DNA of 64,000 bases from an uncultured Clostridia bacterium (GTDB lineage Bacteria > Bacillota > Clostridia > Christensenellales > CAG-138), in contig CAMZFO010000001.1 of the NCBI GenBank assembly GCA_947306125.1, forward strand, positions 3,153 to 67,152, in the 5' to 3' direction. Shown in pieces: positions 56,672-63,900 of this stretch (within the stretch, counting starts at the first letter, position 1; every line of letters starts with the position of its first letter). Made by a program: the position numbers and the translations under genes. Below the pieces are notes generated by a model. That model worked only from the letters and a program-made list of their open reading frames with translations. It searched no databases and had not been told where the DNA came from.

Positions 56672-57460
56672 TTATTTCATCCCGCGCTTGACCATTTCGG
56701 TCACGGCGAAGGTGGCGACGTCGTCGGCGTACTTGCCGGCGCCGAAGCCCGCGTCATAGCCCAGCTCCTTGGCAAGCTCGTGCGTGATGCGCGCGCCGCC
56801 GCAGCAGACTATGAACCTGTCGCGCAGGCCCTCGGCCTCGAGATACTCGATGAGCTCGGTAAGGTTCTGGATGTGGATATCCTTCTGGGTGACGGTCTGC
56901 GAAACCAGGAGCACATCCGCGTTCACCTCGAGCGCCTTCTTCACGAACTCCTCGTTCGGGATCTGGGCGCCCCAGTTATAGGCCTCTATCATCTCGTAGC
57001 GCTCAAGGCCGTAATGTCCCGCAAAGCCCTTGCGGTTCATAATGGCGTCGATGCCGACGGTATGCGCGTCGGTGCCGGTGGAAGCGCCGACCATGACTAT
57101 CTTGCGGCCGAAATGCTCGCGGATGTACTCGTTCGTCTCCTCCATGCCCATCGTCTCCGCCTCGACGGTGACGACGTGGATATTCTCATAATCCACGGAA
57201 TGGACTACGGAGCCGTATACGACGAAGAAGGTGAATTCCTTATCAAGCGTTTTGGCGCAGGCGACGTTGGGCTCGTCAACGCCCATCTTGCGGACGAGCT
57301 GACGGGCGGCCTCGACGCCGCGCTCATCGTTCTTGACGGGCAGGGTGAAGGAGAACTGCACCTTGCCGTCGTTCATCGTGTCGCCGTAAGCCTTGACGCG
57401 GGTGGGATCGAAATGGGTATCGAAATCCGCTTTATGCGTATTGTAAAGTCCACTGCTCAT
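56672..57460 (-). CDS. kamE: D-lysine/beta-lysine 5,6-aminomutase beta subunit (B12-binding)
   Basis: 262 aa: ...VKAYGDTMNDGKVQFSFTLPV..., with a C-terminal B12-binding Rossmann module (...MVGASTGTDAHTVG...). Confidence 0.9.
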   Translation of the reverse strand: MSSGLYNTHKADFDTHFDPTRVKAYGDTMNDGKVQFSFTLPVKNDERGVEAARQLVRKMGVDEPNVACAKTLDKEFTFFVVYGSVVHSVDYENIHVVTVEAETMGMEETNEYIREHFGRKIVMVGASTGTDAHTVGIDAIMNRKGFAGHYGLERYEMIEAYNWGAQIPNEEFVKKALEVNADVLLVSQTVTQKDIHIQNLTELIEYLEAEGLRDRFIVCCGGARITHELAKELGYDAGFGAGKYADDVATFAVTEMVKRGMK

Positions 57461-57463
57461 AAC

Positions 57464-59017
57464 TTACAGGCTCCTTTTCATAAGCTCGATGAAGGGGTTG
57501 AAATAGACAGCGTCCTTGCGGGTGACGCCGGCCAAGCCCTTGCCGCCGTCGCGCGAGCGCTTGATGTCGGCGAAGATGCCCTTTTCCAGAGTGGCGAAGA
57601 GGCCCATCTTCTCGATCTCGCCGAGAAGGTCGGTCGCCTTCTGCAGCACCTCGTTCGCCCTGGTCTCCATTATGCCTCCCTCGCGGAAGGTGATATCGTC
57701 GCCCAGGTCGTGCATGGTGCGGAATATGTACTGCGCGTTCTCGATGGAAAGCGCGCGGTCGCTCATGAACGGCGTGTGGATAGCCTCGGTCAGCATGCCC
57801 AGAAGGTGCAGCTTCTGCCCGGTCAGAATGGTGACGATATTGAACAGGGCGTCCTGCACGTGGCCGCGGAAGATATTGCCCGTCATAAACTTGGTCGGGG
57901 GCATATACTTCAGCGGAGCCTTGGGGAATATCTGCCTTGCCATCTGCGCCTGCGCGAGCTCGTAAAGGAAGCCGTTCGGGACGTCGGGATCGATCTCGAA
58001 CGCATGGCCCAGGCCCTGCTGCTCCTCGGGCAGACCCGCTTCGAGCGCGAACTGCTCGTTCAGGAACTGGGAGGCAAGCACCGTATGCGCCTCCTCGACG
58101 GCGTCCGCGGTGGTCAGATAGTTATCCTCGCCGGTGTTTATGATAACGCCCGCGAAGGAGTTGATGACGCGGCTCATGAACTGGTCGATGATGGTGCGCT
58201 GGGGGTTAATATCGCGGAAGAGTATGCCGTAAAGCGCGTCGTTGAGCATAACGTCGAGCCTTTCCAGCGCGCCCATAGCCGCGATCTCCGGCATACAGAG
58301 GCCGGAGCAGTAGTTGCACAGCCTTATATAGCGGTGCTGCTCCTCGCCCACCTCGTCCAGCGCGGCGCGCATGAGGCGGAAATTCTCCTGAGTGGCGTAG
58401 GTGCCGCCGAAGCCCTCGGTGGTCGCGCCATAGGGAACGTAATCCAAAAGGCTCTGGCCCGTGGTGCGGATAACGGCGATGATATCCGCGCCCTGCTTCG
58501 CCGCCGCCTTCGCCTGGGTGATATCCTCATAGATATTACCGGTCGCGACGATGACGTAAAGGTAGGGATCGGTCTTATCGCCGAACTCGTTCAAATACTC
58601 GTTTCGCTTTGCAACGTTCTTTCTGATCCTTTCGACGGTCGCTTCGGCGACGGGCATAATGACCGAGCGTATCTCCCCGATCGAGTGGGGCGGCAGAGAG
58701 GAAAGATCTATGCTGCCGTCGTCTATGCCCTCGGCGATAGCCTGCGGATCCTTGCCCGTATCGAGCATCGCAAGGCCGATAAGATACGCCGCGCCGACGC
58801 CGAGCAGGCCCTTCTCGGACATATGGTCGACGACCACGTTGGGAAGGGGGACGTCCAGAGCGTTCACTCCGTCTATGCCCAGCAGGCGGCAGACGGTGCG
58901 CTCGACGGTGACGGTCGTATGAAGGTCGATAAAGCTCTGCGTATCGACCGCGATGCGGTGAGCGGATTCGCGGGCCTTATCGACATTCGCCTGATTCAGA
59001 TGAAGCTTCTCATTCAT
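57464..59017 (-). CDS. kamD: D-lysine/beta-lysine 5,6-aminomutase alpha subunit
   Basis: Start at ATG 59017 (MNEKLHLNQANVDKARE...), overlapping the kamA 3' end by 8 nt. About 517 aa, the expected size. The track start 59059 is an extension. Confidence 0.9.
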   Translation of the reverse strand: MNEKLHLNQANVDKARESAHRIAVDTQSFIDLHTTVTVERTVCRLLGIDGVNALDVPLPNVVVDHMSEKGLLGVGAAYLIGLAMLDTGKDPQAIAEGIDDGSIDLSSLPPHSIGEIRSVIMPVAEATVERIRKNVAKRNEYLNEFGDKTDPYLYVIVATGNIYEDITQAKAAAKQGADIIAVIRTTGQSLLDYVPYGATTEGFGGTYATQENFRLMRAALDEVGEEQHRYIRLCNYCSGLCMPEIAAMGALERLDVMLNDALYGILFRDINPQRTIIDQFMSRVINSFAGVIINTGEDNYLTTADAVEEAHTVLASQFLNEQFALEAGLPEEQQGLGHAFEIDPDVPNGFLYELAQAQMARQIFPKAPLKYMPPTKFMTGNIFRGHVQDALFNIVTILTGQKLHLLGMLTEAIHTPFMSDRALSIENAQYIFRTMHDLGDDITFREGGIMETRANEVLQKATDLLGEIEKMGLFATLEKGIFADIKRSRDGGKGLAGVTRKDAVYFNPFIELMKRSL

Positions 59018-60290
59018 GCTTTCTGCCCCTTTCGAGACGGGCAAGTCCTCTGGGCTCAAGGGAGATATTGCCGTCCTGACGGCCCTGCTCGAGACCCGCT
59101 ACGCCTACGAGATCGGGCTGCTCCTCACGCGCCTTGCGGCATACCTCGCAATGGCAGTCCTCAACGTAGTTCTCGGGCTCGGTATAGGTGGTGATAACGC
59201 CCTCGAAGTTGCGGAGTATGGTCTTCCTGGGGGTCTGGCTGATCACGTAATTGGGCATTACGGGAGTCTTGCCGCCGCCGCCGGGAGCATCCACGACGAA
59301 CGTGGGTACGGCATAGCCGGAGGTGTGACCGCGCAGGCCTTCGATGATCTCGATACCCTTGGAAACGGGGGTGCGGAAATGGGTGAGACCCATGGAGAGG
59401 TCGCAGACGTAGATATAATAGGGACGAACCCTGATATAGACGAGCGCCTGAACGAGCTTCTTCATGACGTGCACACAGTCGTTTACGCCGTGGAGGAGCA
59501 CGGTCTGGTTGCCGAGGGGGATACCGGCGTCGGCGAGCATGGCGCAGGCGCGGCGGGACTCCTCGGTGATCTCCTTGGGATGGTTGAAGTGAGTGTTCAG
59601 CCAGATGGGATGATACTTCTTGAGCATATTGCAGAGCTCGGGAGTGATCCTCTGGGGACATACGACGGGGGTGCGGGAGCCGAGACGGACGATCTCGACG
59701 TGGGGGATCTTCCTGAGCTCGGAGATGATGTACTCGAGCTTTTCATCGGAGATCATCAGCACGTCGCCGCCGGAGAGCAGAACGTCGCGCACTTCGGGAT
59801 GGTTCCTGATGTATTCGAGGCAGCCCTCGATCTGGCAGTCGGGAACGGCGGTGTCGGTCTGGCCTGCGAAACGCCTCCTCGTGCAGTGGCGGCAGTACAT
59901 GGAGCACTGGTCGGTGACGAGGAAGAGCACGCGGTCGGGATACCTGTGGGTGAGACCGGGAACGGGAGAATCGGTGTCCTCATGCAGAGGATCGAGCTGA
60001 TCTTCGGGAGCCTGATAGAGCTCCGCGGCCGTGGGGATCGCCTGACGCCTTACGGGATCGAAGGGATCGTCGGGATCGATGAGGGAGAGATAATAGGGCG
60101 TGATCGCCATGCGGAGGGTGCCGAGGCACTTCTTAACGCCGTCCTCCTCCTCGGGGGTAAGCTTGACGTATTTTTTGAGATCCTCAAGGGTCTCTACGCG
60201 GTTGGCGACCTGCCAATGCCAGTCGTTCCAAAGCTCATCGGGAATATCCTTGAAAAGTCCGTATGCACGGCTCTGATTGATGGTGACCAT
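59010..60290 (-). CDS. kamA: L-lysine 2,3-aminomutase (radical SAM)
   Basis: 426 aa with radical-SAM motif CSMYCRHCTRR: ...LTHRYPDRVLFLVTDQC..., ...VRDVLLSGGD... Confidence 0.95.
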   Translation of the reverse strand: MVTINQSRAYGLFKDIPDELWNDWHWQVANRVETLEDLKKYVKLTPEEEDGVKKCLGTLRMAITPYYLSLIDPDDPFDPVRRQAIPTAAELYQAPEDQLDPLHEDTDSPVPGLTHRYPDRVLFLVTDQCSMYCRHCTRRRFAGQTDTAVPDCQIEGCLEYIRNHPEVRDVLLSGGDVLMISDEKLEYIISELRKIPHVEIVRLGSRTPVVCPQRITPELCNMLKKYHPIWLNTHFNHPKEITEESRRACAMLADAGIPLGNQTVLLHGVNDCVHVMKKLVQALVYIRVRPYYIYVCDLSMGLTHFRTPVSKGIEIIEGLRGHTSGYAVPTFVVDAPGGGGKTPVMPNYVISQTPRKTILRNFEGVITTYTEPENYVEDCHCEVCRKAREEQPDLVGVAGLEQGRQDGNISLEPRGLARLERGRKHE

Positions 60291-60331: not shown

Positions 60332-60979
60332 TCAGTTGACGCCTTGTGTCAGCGCGTTTTCGACGTCGAATGCAACGTCCTTGAATACAGGCCCGTACTT
60401 GGTCTCGCAGCTTAAGGGAGCGAAGCCCTGAACGGTGTATACCCTCTCGTTCTCGACGACGTACTTGACGAGCCATGTTTTCTCGATCTCGCCGGTCTTC
60501 TTATACTCGGCGGTGGACGAGATGCTCAGGCAGACGTAGTTGTCGAATTTCTCGAACTTGAAATCGTCCACGGTGTATTCCGCGTTCTGGGAATCGACCA
60601 TGCCGAGCGCGATCTTCAGGTATTCGAGCGCCTCTTCGTCGGTATACGCGGCTATCTCCGCATATTTGCGGGTCGGGACCTTGTAATACGCGGTGGAATT
60701 CTCGTAATCGATGAAGGAATCGTAAAACTCATAGGTGAGCACGCCCTTATCATCCGCGGTATTGGCGACGAAGGCCTCCTCCTCTTCGGACGACCTGACG
60801 AAGCAGTCAAGGTAGCTGAAGGTGACTGCCGTGCCGTCGTCATAGGGCACGTAGCTCACCTCGCCGTAATTGACGTCGGTGGGGCCTTCGGGAGCGTATT
60901 TCTTTTCCCCGCAGCCCGTCATGAACGGAACGGCGGCCAGTACAGCAAGGCACAGAATAAGGGAAATCAACTTTTTCAT
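60332..60979 (-). CDS. Hypothetical lipoprotein embedded in the lysine fermentation operon
   Basis: Start at ATG 60979 (GGAG SD 6 nt upstream): MKKLISLILCLAVLAAVPFMTGCGEKK (lipobox MTGC). 215 aa. I recognise no family. The track start 61084 overlaps kdd. Confidence 0.7.
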   Translation of the reverse strand: MKKLISLILCLAVLAAVPFMTGCGEKKYAPEGPTDVNYGEVSYVPYDDGTAVTFSYLDCFVRSSEEEEAFVANTADDKGVLTYEFYDSFIDYENSTAYYKVPTRKYAEIAAYTDEEALEYLKIALGMVDSQNAEYTVDDFKFEKFDNYVCLSISSTAEYKKTGEIEKTWLVKYVVENERVYTVQGFAPLSCETKYGPVFKDVAFDVENALTQGVN

Positions 60980-61043: not shown

Positions 61044-62084
61044 TCAGCAGTATTTCTCGTCGAAGAGCTTGCGGAGCTTCGCATTCTCGCGCAGAACGTT
61101 CAGGGTGATTTCGGCGTGATCCTTGGTGTATCCGTTGCCGATGATCATGGTGACGTCCTTGCCGATGCCCTCGGCGCCCAGAGCCGCCTTGGTGAAGGAG
61201 GTGGCCATGGAGAAGAAGTAGACGATACCGTCGTCGCGGACGGGGAGGATCGCGCTCATCTCGCAGGACTCGACGTTGACGCAGCAGATGGAGATATCAT
61301 ACTCCTTGCCGTCGTTCGCCTCGAGAGCGGCGTTCAGAACGGCGATAGGCTCGGTCGCGGAGGCGACGACGACCTTGTTGTAAACGCCCAGCTCCATCAG
61401 AGCGGGGACCTGCTTCGGGTTCCTGACGACGCCGACGACGTTGCCCTTGGGGCCGACCTTCTTCATGGCCTCATAGCCGCAGAGAACGCCGGACTTGCCG
61501 TTTGCGCCGAGAATGAGGACGCTGTCGCCCTCCTTGGGGAGCTTGCGCGCCTGAGCGGGAGCGCCGGCGACGTCGAGGGCAGCGAGGGCGAGAGGCTCGC
61601 TCATGTCATCGGGCAGCTTGGCATAGATGCCGCTCTCGAACAGGACGGCCTGACCGATGATGTCGACGCGGTCGATCTCCTTATGGATGGCAAGTATCTT
61701 GTCGATCTTGAGAGGAGTGAGGGAAAGGGAAACGAGGGAAGCGATCTTATCGCCGACCTTGAGGTCGCGGTCCGCAAGATCCTCGCCGATATAGGCGACC
61801 TTGCCGATGAACATGCCGCCGGAACCGGTGACGGGGTTCTGCTGCTTGCCGCGCTCCGCCACGATGCCCATGATCATTTCGCCGATCTTCTGCTCGTCGC
61901 CGCCGCAGGCCTCCTCGATCTGAGTGAAGGAAGCGGAGTCGATGTTCAGGGAGATGACGTCGCAGATGATCTCGTTGGAATAGCGCTTGGTCATGTCGTT
62001 GTCGATCTTCCAAGCTGCCTGAGTGAGAACGCCCTGGGGCTCGATGACCCTGTGAGTACCGTACTTGTTGCCTTTGAGTGCCAT
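61044..62084 (-). CDS. kdd: L-erythro-3,5-diaminohexanoate dehydrogenase
   Basis: 346 aa: MALKGNKYGTHRVIEPQGVLTQAAWKIDNDM... and a Rossmann segment ...VLILGANGKSG..., consistent with Kdd and with the pathway context. Confidence 0.85.
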   Translation of the reverse strand: MALKGNKYGTHRVIEPQGVLTQAAWKIDNDMTKRYSNEIICDVISLNIDSASFTQIEEACGGDEQKIGEMIMGIVAERGKQQNPVTGSGGMFIGKVAYIGEDLADRDLKVGDKIASLVSLSLTPLKIDKILAIHKEIDRVDIIGQAVLFESGIYAKLPDDMSEPLALAALDVAGAPAQARKLPKEGDSVLILGANGKSGVLCGYEAMKKVGPKGNVVGVVRNPKQVPALMELGVYNKVVVASATEPIAVLNAALEANDGKEYDISICCVNVESCEMSAILPVRDDGIVYFFSMATSFTKAALGAEGIGKDVTMIIGNGYTKDHAEITLNVLRENAKLRKLFDEKYC

Positions 62085-62352: not shown

Positions 62353-63180
62353 TTACTTTAAGGGTTTAAGAGAAAGTATGCGCCTTGCTTCCTCGGGAGA
62401 AGCGATCTCGCGGCCGAGCTCGCGGGAGAGGCGGACGACCTTTTCGACCAGCTCGCCGTTGGAGGCGGCCTTTACGCCGCGGGAGAGATAGATATTATCC
62501 TCGAAGCCCACGCGTACGTTGCCGCCCATAACGATGGTGGGAGCGGCAAGTGTGAAGGCGGAGCGGCCAACGCCGGTGGCGGTCCAGGTGGAGCCCGCGG
62601 GGATGGCGTCTACCATCCAGCAGAGGTTCTTGACCGTGGCGGGAGTGCAGCCCTTGACGCCGAGCACGAAGTTGAACTGCATCGGATCGCCGGGGACCTC
62701 GCCCTTGCGCGCCATATCGAGAATGGTGTCGATATGGCCCATCTCGAAGCACTCGTATTCGGGCTTGATGCCGTTCTCGATCATGCGCTTGCCGAACGCG
62801 CGCATGGTGGGCATGGTGTTATCGAATATCTCGTCGCCGAAATTGCAGGTGCCGCAATCGAGGGTCGCCATTTCGGGGAAGAGCTCGGTGGGCTGGAGCC
62901 TCTCCTCGGGGCTCATGCCGGTGGCGCCGCCCGTGGAGGGGATCATTATGACGTCGGGAAGCTCGCGGCGGATGGCATCCATTACGACGCGGAAGCGCTC
63001 GCGGCTCTGGGTGGGAGTGCCGTCGTCCTCGCGGACGTGGACGTGGATGATCGCGGCGCCCGCGTTATAGGCGGAACGGGCCTCGTTCACCATTTCCTCA
63101 ACGGTATAGGGCACGGCGGGATTATGCGCCTTGGTGACTTCCGCACCGCAGATAGCGGCGGTGATTATCAGCTTTTCCAT
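62353..63180 (-). CDS. kce: 3-keto-5-aminohexanoate cleavage enzyme (BKACE family)
   Basis: 275 aa: MEKLIITAAICGAEVTKAHNPAVPYTVEEMVNEA..., ...IIHVHVRED... Confidence 0.9.
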   Translation of the reverse strand: MEKLIITAAICGAEVTKAHNPAVPYTVEEMVNEARSAYNAGAAIIHVHVREDDGTPTQSRERFRVVMDAIRRELPDVIMIPSTGGATGMSPEERLQPTELFPEMATLDCGTCNFGDEIFDNTMPTMRAFGKRMIENGIKPEYECFEMGHIDTILDMARKGEVPGDPMQFNFVLGVKGCTPATVKNLCWMVDAIPAGSTWTATGVGRSAFTLAAPTIVMGGNVRVGFEDNIYLSRGVKAASNGELVEKVVRLSRELGREIASPEEARRILSLKPLK

Positions 63181-63198: not shown

Positions 63199-63606
63199 TC
63201 AGAGATTCTCGTAATTGCCGCGCTTCTTGTCCTTGGGGACCACGCAGGTGCCGGAAGCCCTGCAGACGACGATGGGCTCGGCCAGAACGTCGCACGCGGA
63301 ATCGTTGATATCGGGGCGGGGCATAATGACCTTCCTGGCCTCGAACACCATCTTGCGGGAGGTGTTGCCGATATGGGTGATCTCGCCGTAAGCTTCGATA
63401 TAATCGCCGGCGAACACGGGAGCGATGAACTCGACCATATCGTATGCCTTGAAGAGCCCCTCGTCGCCGTCGAGCTTGATCAGAAGCTCGGTCGCAACGT
63501 CGCCGAAGAGAGCGAGCATATGCGCGCCGTCAACGAGGTTTCCGCCGTAATGCGCGTCCTGCGCGCTCATGCGGAGACGAATCGTGGATGTGATCTTGTT
63601 TTCCAT
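63199..63606 (-). CDS. kal: 3-aminobutyryl-CoA ammonia-lyase (hot-dog fold)
   Basis: Start at ATG 63606 (GGAGG SD 9 nt upstream): [42 protein letters not shown]... 135 aa. Size and context fit Kal. The track start 63792 runs through the riboswitch. Confidence 0.8.
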
Positions 63607-63636
63607 AAGTATAGACCTCCGTGTGAAATGTTTTTG

Positions 63637-63687
63637 AAAAAAAGGCGCTCCTGCATGCGACCCCGAAGGATCGCTGCATAGCGCACC
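63637..63687 (-). terminator. Long intrinsic terminator that forms the expression platform of the L-box
   Basis: Minus strand: GGTGCGC-TA-TGCAGCGATCC-TTCG-GGGTCGC(A)TGCA-GGA-GCGCC followed by TTTTTTT. It lies 30 nt upstream of the kal ATG. Confidence 0.8.
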
Positions 63688-63849
63688 ATTGACATAATCA
63701 ATGACAGTCGCACGGCGCTTGGCCGTACGCCCAGATGCGCCCTCTGCGGATAAAAGCACACCTTCGGCAGGAGAGCCATTCACGCACCGCAAACGGGCTC
63801 CGCAGCCCAGCGCGGCGCGTTACCTGAACCCCTGCGCCTCTACTTCACC
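63688..63849 (-). promoter_or_regulatory. Lysine riboswitch (L-box/LYS element) aptamer
   Basis: Minus strand has, in canonical order: GGUGAAGUAGAGGCGC, ...CCUGCCGAAGG, P3 GGUGUGC/GCGCAUC, UCUGG, P4 CGUACGGC-CAAGC-GCCGUGCG, ACUGUCA, P5 CAUUGA-UUAUG-UCAAUG. The 5' end closely resembles the B. subtilis lysC leader (GGUGAAGAUAGAGGUGC) as I remember it. Confidence 0.75.
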
Positions 63850-63878
63850 ATTATATAGGAAAGCACACGCTCTGTCAA
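63850..63878 (-). promoter_or_regulatory. Consensus sigma-A promoter of the lysine fermentation operon
   Basis: Minus strand: TTGACA-17 nt-TATAAT, immediately upstream of the aptamer. Confidence 0.75.
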
Positions 63879-63879
63879 G

Positions 63880-63900
63880 AAAAAAATCCCCGTTTGGGGA
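63880..63900 (-). terminator. Rho-independent terminator of an upstream minus-strand unit (beyond the window)
   Basis: Minus strand: TCCCC-AAAC-GGGGA followed by TTTTTTT, abutting the -35 box. Confidence 0.6.

Follow-up and report, generated by a model that had tools for sequence, protein, structure and literature searches.

The stretch examined here (the window) comprises 64,000 nucleotides (nt) of contig CAMZFO010000001.1 from an uncultured Clostridia bacterium and carries, on its minus strand, a seven-gene operon for the fermentation of lysine. The leader in front of the first gene, kal, holds a consensus promoter, a lysine riboswitch aptamer of the L-box type and an intrinsic terminator that begins inside the aptamer. 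Judging from its sequence, we hold with good confidence that this leader is a lysine riboswitch acting on transcription and wired as an ON switch, in which bound lysine would block termination and open the way into genes that consume lysine. An original prediction, made from the letters of the DNA, had arrived at the same reading, and every element that it listed is present where it had been placed. The features of the locus are given below with their evidence in parentheses.

63887–63900, minus strand: intrinsic terminator of the upstream unit, UCCCCAAACGGGGA followed by a U-tract (terminator scan).

63850–63878, minus strand: sigma-70-type promoter, with TTGACA at 63878–63873, a 17-nt spacer and TATAAT at 63855–63850 (12/12 consensus matches).

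63671–63850, minus strand: lysine riboswitch aptamer, RF00168, with a functional core from the P1 5' strand (63843) to the P1 3' strand (63678) (covariance model, RNAalifold).

63840–63843, minus strand: P1 5' strand GUAG, predicted to lie at or beside the 5' end of the transcript (covariance-model alignment, constrained folds, promoter spacing).

63799–63805, minus strand: L2 loop segment CUGCGGA, kissing-loop partner of L3 (7-bp complement to 63750–63744).

63744–63750, minus strand: L3 loop segment UCCGCAG, kissing-loop partner of L2 (7-bp complement to L2).

63678–63687, minus strand: switching sequence GGUGCGCUAU, made up of the last two nucleotides of P5, J5/1 UGCG and the P1 3' strand CUAU (covariance-model alignment, constrained folds).

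63637–63687, minus strand: intrinsic terminator, with a stem of 16–18 base pairs (bp) at 63687–63644, a UUCG loop and U7 at 63643–63637 (folding).

63604–63620, minus strand: ribosome-binding site (RBS) GGAGG at 63620–63616 and kal ATG at 63606–63604 (sequence, folds).

63199–63606, minus strand: kal, 3-aminobutyryl-CoA ammonia-lyase (NF052388, 196.8 bits against a cut-off of 160).

62353–63180, minus strand: kce, 3-keto-5-aminohexanoate cleavage enzyme (NF052387, 415.5 bits against 382; Pfam BKACE).

61044–62084, minus strand: kdd, L-erythro-3,5-diaminohexanoate dehydrogenase (NF052381, 261.9 bits against a cut-off of 200).

60332–60979, minus strand: lipoprotein-like open reading frame (ORF) of 215 amino acids (N-terminal lipoprotein-like signal MKKLISLILCLAVLAAVPFMTGC...).

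59010–60290, minus strand: kamA, lysine 2,3-aminomutase (TIGR03820, 619.5 bits against a cut-off of 525).

57464–59017, minus strand: kamD, lysine 5,6-aminomutase alpha subunit (NF052384, 913.5 bits).

56672–57460, minus strand: kamE, lysine 5,6-aminomutase beta subunit, B12-binding (NF052385, 400.3 bits).

The Rfam lysine riboswitch model, RF00168, matches the minus strand at 63850–63671 with 79.3 bits against a gathering score of 30 (E 4.4e-19). The match spans model positions 1–182, that is the full model, and is the sole Rfam hit across the 64-kb window, which settles the L-box identity that had been predicted. The helices previously drawn by hand agree with the covariance-model alignment, which maps P3 (GGUGUGC/GCGCAUC), P4 (GGCGUACGGC/GCCGUGCGAC) and P5 (UCAUUGA/UCAAUGG), and the L-box strings AGAGGCGC, GCCGAAGG, CUGG and ACUGUCA are all found in the aptamer; L4 reads CAAGC. 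For the window together with 26 diverse relatives, RNAalifold recovers P1–P5 with 48 pairs, 37 of which show compensatory changes. The tertiary architecture is kept as well: across 27 sequences, L2 fits the L3 of its own locus better than the L3 of other loci, and the observed sum is matched in 0 of 5000 permutations. This L2-L3 kissing loop is reported to be essential in characterised lysine riboswitches (PMC3764141).

The list of pocket and junction nucleotides (more than 95% conserved and pocket-forming) and the roles of the residues were taken from PMC3764141. We compared positions G9, A10, G11, G12, G14, C15, GCCGAA (G77–A81), G163 and C166, and in the covariance-model alignment all of them, with the string GCCGAA(G), are kept in the window aptamer. 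PMC3764141 summarises the Thermotoga maritima structure, where the floor of the lysine pocket includes G11-G163, which also stabilises the upper end of P1; the pocket floor and the top P1 pair of the solved structure involve G163 and C166. These features argue that the window element is a genuine lysine riboswitch aptamer.

Two departures from the usual aptamer bear on the identity of its ligand. J5/1, reading GGUGCG, had been called atypical, which stands for A162, a U in the window, but not for the remainder: position 164 is changed yet variable in the Rfam consensus, and G163, G165 and C166 are kept. In the internal loop of P2, a GGUA/GAAUG combination specific to the kal-linked group replaces AGUA/GAAAGG. 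Both changes, together with the fact that the regulated pathway handles several lysine isomers, would suit an aptamer that senses a related compound (such as beta-lysine, D-lysine or another diamino acid) in place of L-lysine. We regard such a shift in specificity as quite improbable, given that the pocket positions compared are all kept and that 79 bits is a high score against the standard RF00168 model. Position 162 itself lies outside the list of positions conserved above 95%, and because it varies among A, U and C within the kal-linked aptamers (the U recurs in L001-L003, L007, L008, L012, L024 and L028, where L numbers denote loci from the comparison described below), it is unlikely to set specificity. 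L-lysine is thus the ligand that we infer.

The expression platform adjoins the aptamer directly. In line with the predicted stem of about 18 bp followed by U7, the terminator hairpin folds with a free energy (dG) of -27.4 kcal/mol and a z-score of -4.5 relative to 200 dinucleotide shuffles, none of which folds as well. A simple consensus terminator scanner did not report the hairpin at 63687–63644, because its stem contains a bulge and an internal loop, and folding was used to verify it. The terminator starts inside P5/J5-1, with no spacer after the aptamer, and the P1 3' strand (63681–63678) falls within its stem. The switching sequence GGUGCGCUAU is therefore common to the aptamer and to the terminator 5' arm. 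On the aptamer side it holds the equivalents of G163 and G165 in J5/1 and of C166 in the P1 3' strand; on the terminator side its nucleotides build the GC-rich base, GGUGC.GCU with AGC.GCGCC, that adjoins the U-tract. Because J5/1 and the P1 3' strand form the base of the terminator 5' arm, lysine binding and termination would be mutually exclusive, which makes the element a predicted ON switch. The lack of spacing between P5 and the terminator leaves no room in the window leader for a separate antiterminator helix, as had been proposed. This missing spacing and the catabolic nature of the downstream genes set the leader apart from a canonical OFF L-box of the lysC type. In the folds of both the terminator and the P1-closed state the RBS is unsequestered, so control is predicted to be transcriptional.

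Comparison with related leaders shows that this overlap is not peculiar to the window. We gathered 80 loci with Kal relatives from contigs of one genome per species and scanned 60 of them with Rfam; the closest relatives, with 99% Kal identity, are metagenome-assembled genomes (MAGs) of rumen and gut Clostridia. A full-length lysine aptamer lies directly upstream of kal in 42 of the 60 scanned loci, and these 42 plus the window form the set of 43 leaders used for comparison. In all 43, J5/1 and the P1 3' strand make up the 5' arm of a hairpin that is followed by a U-tract. The consensus of the nucleotides after P5 is GAAGCGCUAUUGA, and at least three of the four nucleotides of the P1 3' strand (CUAU) are paired in the terminator hairpin in 40/43 leaders, with a median hairpin dG of -23 kcal/mol. 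The distal parts of the terminator stems are unrelated in sequence, even among the nearest relatives of the window; the shared part compensates, as in L013 (GCACUG/CAGUGC), L027 (GAGCUAU/AUAGCUC) and L029 (GGGCUAUUGA/UCAAUAGCU). Our first terminator heuristic halted at U-rich hairpin loops in nine leaders and a refined version over-extended in five, and in every leader so affected J5/1 and the P1 3' strand still take part in the first hairpin. The predicted exclusion between P1 closure and the terminator, and the ON wiring drawn from it, are thus upheld at the sequence level by a recurrent overlap with compensatory changes. We take the conserved direct overlap, linked throughout to a catabolic operon, as the signature of an ON platform, and this predicted lysine-ON layout as common in gut and rumen Clostridia.

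The remaining 18 of the 60 scanned loci have no lysine aptamer within 3 kb on either side of kal, so lysine fermentation there would be regulated otherwise or from farther upstream. Examples are L009, L019, L023, L033-L035, L051, L065 and L072; of these, L033-L035 are the three Bacteroidales MAG loci scanned, none of which has the aptamer, and L065 is from a Peptostreptococcaceae isolate. One aptamer-bearing locus is unlike the other leaders in having, at L069:2743-3000, one ON-type terminator and then about 200 nt of GC-rich structured sequence before kal.

P1 itself is short. As the original prediction had found, only about 4 bp can be paired: GUAG at 63843–63840 with CUAU at 63681–63678, including one G-U, while the two outer pairs of the model are non-canonical. 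The promoter offers a reason for this. With 12/12 matches at 63878–63850 it is the consensus promoter that had been described, and its position places the transcript start at an inferred ~63845–63843, so that the start would abut P1 and limit its length. In the clade of the window (window, L001, L002 and L004-L006) the -10 hexamer ends exactly 8 nt upstream of AGAGG, which means that the transcript should start on or beside the first P1 nucleotide throughout the clade; lineages outside it have 10–37 nt of additional leader. P1 in the clade of the window thus appears to be limited to about 4–6 bp (the P1 consensus of the RNAalifold set is 5 bp), and the 4-bp helix looks like a design feature of the whole clade and not an artefact of alignment. 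A promoter match of at least 9/12 is present in 34/43 kal-linked leaders, and many reach 12/12, which suggests strong constitutive initiation with control exerted wholly at the terminator. On the other side of the promoter, the intrinsic terminator at 63900–63887 closes the preceding transcription unit and shields the kal promoter from read-through.

These features can be assembled into a mechanism. A strong constitutive promoter would start the RNA essentially at the first nucleotide of P1, and the aptamer would fold during synthesis. The ten nucleotides of GGUGCGCUAU (63687–63678) would then face two mutually exclusive partners. With L-lysine bound, they would close P5 and contribute the pocket floor and the junction (G163, G165), the G9-C166 pair and the 4-bp P1. 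This would block the GC-rich base of the terminator and leave a distal hairpin of 10–11 bp about 8–10 nt from the U-tract, and RNA polymerase would continue into kal-kce-kdd-(lipoprotein)-kamA-kamD-kamE. In the absence of lysine, P1 would be too weak to hold, the full 16–18 bp hairpin would form beside U7, and transcription would stop at ~63640.

Constrained folding gives an energetic view of this switch. Folds with and without a P1 constraint, proposed as a check by the original prediction, separate the two alternatives, with -103.4 kcal/mol for the terminator state and -95.7 kcal/mol for the P1-closed state. When the switching sequence is held by the aptamer, the distal hairpin of 10–11 bp remains at 8–10 nt from the U-tract, and by this model it should not terminate. 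In folds of the growing transcript P1 is absent from every minimum-energy structure, so termination would be the default state. Because a P1 of only 4 bp faces a terminator that exceeds the closed aptamer in stability by about 8 kcal/mol, the decision is probably kinetic and probably needs high lysine, a threshold that would suit a catabolic operon.

Several of these observations weigh against an ON riboswitch. The P1 duplex contributes only about -0.7 kcal/mol, and nearest-neighbour folding of truncated transcripts never favours the closed aptamer (P1 pair probability <=0.18); with so weak a P1, the ON state must rely wholly on ligand and tertiary energy. The transcript start of the kal leader is deduced from the promoter position alone, A162, part of the purine quartet of the pocket floor, is replaced, and our literature search found no measured lysine binding or lysine-dependent read-through for any natural lysine-ON riboswitch. 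The energetic points would also fit a switch that does not respond at all, in which the terminator, favoured by about 8 kcal/mol, always beats the 4-bp P1 whatever the transcript length, leaving a constitutive attenuator, or one relieved by another factor, with the aptamer as a relic. Nearest-neighbour energies, however, omit the stabilisation by ligand and tertiary contacts, so thermodynamics alone cannot reveal ON behaviour, and by our own estimate a gap of about 8 kcal/mol is comparable to what a micromolar ligand gains on binding. The 43 leaders show clear purifying and compensatory selection on the aptamer and on its tertiary contacts, and the whole clade keeps the promoter-to-P1 spacing and the short P1, which points to a tuned design and not to decay. 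We therefore regard a non-responsive element as improbable and retain the lysine-ON switch.

The folds also contain a long-range pairing. The 5' segment AGAGGCGC (63839–63832) is fully complementary to GCGCCUUU (63649–63640), which covers the 3' base of the terminator and the U-tract, and in the unconstrained minimum-energy fold of the whole leader AGAGGC pairs with GCCUUU. We rejected this helix as regulatory, since it arises incidentally from the GCGC palindrome and draws in the U-tract. Taken at face value, it would invert the logic: without lysine, AGAGGCGC would pair with GCGCCUUU as a long-range antiterminator, and lysine, by locking AGAGGCGC in the aptamer, would allow termination. Such an OFF switch is highly improbable on several grounds. 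The pairing stems from the palindromic GCGC plus A/G-U pairs with the U-tract, which is not free to pair while the decision is made, being still part of the RNA-DNA hybrid. The local partner within the terminator hairpin is about 200 nt nearer than AGAGGCGC, and P2 and most of the terminator stem persist in the very fold that shows the long-range helix. Moreover, in 43/43 leaders the arm beside the U-tract is the direct pairing partner of the P1 3' strand, the ON signature, and repression by lysine of a pathway that consumes lysine would be physiologically senseless.

Upon examination of the related leaders, we noticed that many of them extend the lysine-ON layout. In 19/43, the distance between aptamer and kal is 133–195 nt, and a second copy of the P5 3' strand, J5/1 and the P1 3' strand follows 58–92 nt after the first. 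The window, with a gap of 64 nt, has one terminator and no second copy of this closing strand. On a rough Kal tree the two-terminator and single forms are interspersed, and the clade of the window is uniformly single. The two-copy loci are listed here.

Aptamer end to kal (~3001), for example L025:2828-3000: L014, L015, L016, L018, L020, L021, L022, L025, L027 and L028.

Aptamer end to kal (~3001): L029, L030, L036, L043, L044, L046, L060, L067 and L070.

Copy 2 opens a second hairpin with a U-tract in 18/19 of these leaders (median dG -23.5 kcal/mol), L016 being without the U-tract. The 5' arm of the second hairpin starts in J5/1 in most of them, so that the P5 3' segment lies outside the hairpin, yet this segment is kept in nearly all 19. 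At variable positions it pairs with the P5 5' strand of its own locus more than permutation would give, 27 against 17.2 expected (p about 0.002; permutation over 12 lineage representatives, with shared descent from copy 1 as a caveat). At times copy 2 pairs better than copy 1 or does so through other bases, as in L070 (GCCGUGA) and L018 (UAGGUGG). For the outer, P1 part of copy 2, pairing with the P1 5' strand of its own locus does not exceed the permuted level (p 0.18). The 3' arm of terminator 1 is in turn complementary to the 5' arm of terminator 2, over 6–16 pairs with a median duplex energy of -12.3 kcal/mol.

Two models could accommodate the second unit. In one, the aptamer core would re-close on copy 2 and sense lysine a second time; in the other, the freed 3' arm of terminator 1 would serve as an antiterminator for terminator 2, forming a relay. 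Either, if true, would make the switch less leaky or its response sharper while using one aptamer only. The aptamers of L008, L012 and L031 carry insertions of 25–30 nt in P5, so the P5 loop tolerates extra structure, an observation relevant to the idea of an aptamer closing again around a terminator hairpin inserted into it. The tandem-riboswitch catalogue of 2022 (PMC9481103) contains 14 double, complete lysine riboswitches and lacks a class in which a single aptamer is combined with two expression platforms, and our literature search found no description of a one-aptamer/two-terminator design. These relatives may add a category to the known tandem arrangements. Our proposal, tentative and somewhat short of an even bet, is that lysine riboswitches include a large, coherent ON subclass, unmapped so far, with a terminator base built from nucleotides of the pocket floor and P1; the window switch would be its minimal form, and sister lineages would extend the design to one core with two serial terminators.

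The genes under this control were identified by NCBIfam equivalog cut-offs, with Pfam in agreement. The six genes kal, kce, kdd, kamA, kamD and kamE all score above these cut-offs and all degrade lysine, which bears out the predicted operon content; the original prediction lacked the 215-amino-acid ORF between kdd and kamA. This ORF has no Pfam or NCBIfam match. It is kept at the same position of the operon only in L001-L003 and L005-L007, with 41–68% identity, and is an operon member specific to the clade of the window. The longest ORF for kamD opens at a TTG (59059) within the end of kamA (59010–59059, minus strand). The NCBIfam profile aligns kamD starting with the ATG at 59017, leaving an overlap of a few bases with the kamA stop, an arrangement that suggests translational coupling between kamA and kamD. 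Among the routes by which gut and rumen anaerobes catabolise amino acids, the fermentation of lysine to butyrate and acetate is a significant one, and the window element is likely to be the gate of this pathway in an uncultured Clostridia lineage.

Among lysine riboswitches, those of B. subtilis lysC and T. maritima asd are OFF switches for biosynthesis or uptake genes, with a separate antiterminator and a longer P1, and E. coli lysC acts through RBS and RNase E control instead of an antiterminator. With the B. subtilis and T. maritima members of RF00168, the window element shares the five-helix junction, the L2-L3 kissing loop and the core AGAGGCGC, GCCGAAG, CUGG, CUGUCA and G163/C166. By contrast, its terminator overlaps P1 and J5/1 directly, its P1 has 4 bp, and the genes downstream consume lysine. 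In its predicted working it is closer to the adenine riboswitch of B. subtilis pbuE (ydhL) and the glycine riboswitch of gcvT, both validated ON riboswitches that act through competition with a terminator (PMC2258182). In these the P1 3' strand doubles in the terminator 5' arm, as it does in the window, and co-transcriptional ligand binding blocks the terminator, as it is predicted to do in the window. The aptamer folds and ligands, however, are unrelated, so the likeness is one of working and not of family membership.

The lysine-ON kind has already been predicted at lysine-fermentation genes, as the original prediction had correctly stated, and the window element adds another member. Barrick & Breaker 2007 (PMC2258182), citing Rodionov 2003, give activating logic as the prediction for certain lysine riboswitches. 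Mukherjee & Sengupta 2017 (PMC5584792) list such riboswitches in front of kal/kce in C. sticklandii, F. nucleatum and Thermoanaerobacter and call them positively regulated, without analysing their expression platforms. Compared through the descriptions in these citing papers, the predicted activating riboswitches of Thermoanaerobacter tengcongensis, Fusobacterium nucleatum and Clostridium sticklandii share with the window the aptamer class, the kal/kce/kamA context and the proposed logic. The window element differs from them in belonging to an uncultured rumen and gut Clostridia lineage, in a minimal P1 of 4 bp that directly adjoins the predicted transcript start, and in its seven-gene operon with a clade-specific lipoprotein gene.

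The 43 leaders yield a design rule, namely that J5/1 and the P1 3' strand form the base of the terminator. The leader of the window, with its consensus promoter and a length of ~210 nt, is a compact template for testing or reuse. Natural lysine-ON switches have been predicted since 2003; bioengineers have meanwhile, it is said, evolved a lysine-ON device from an OFF switch. This engineered riboswitch, reportedly derived from a natural OFF switch by Zhou & Zeng (2015, ACS Synth Biol), achieves lysine-induced expression through the lysine aptamer, as we propose for the window; the window element, by contrast, would be ON by natural design and would act through transcription termination.

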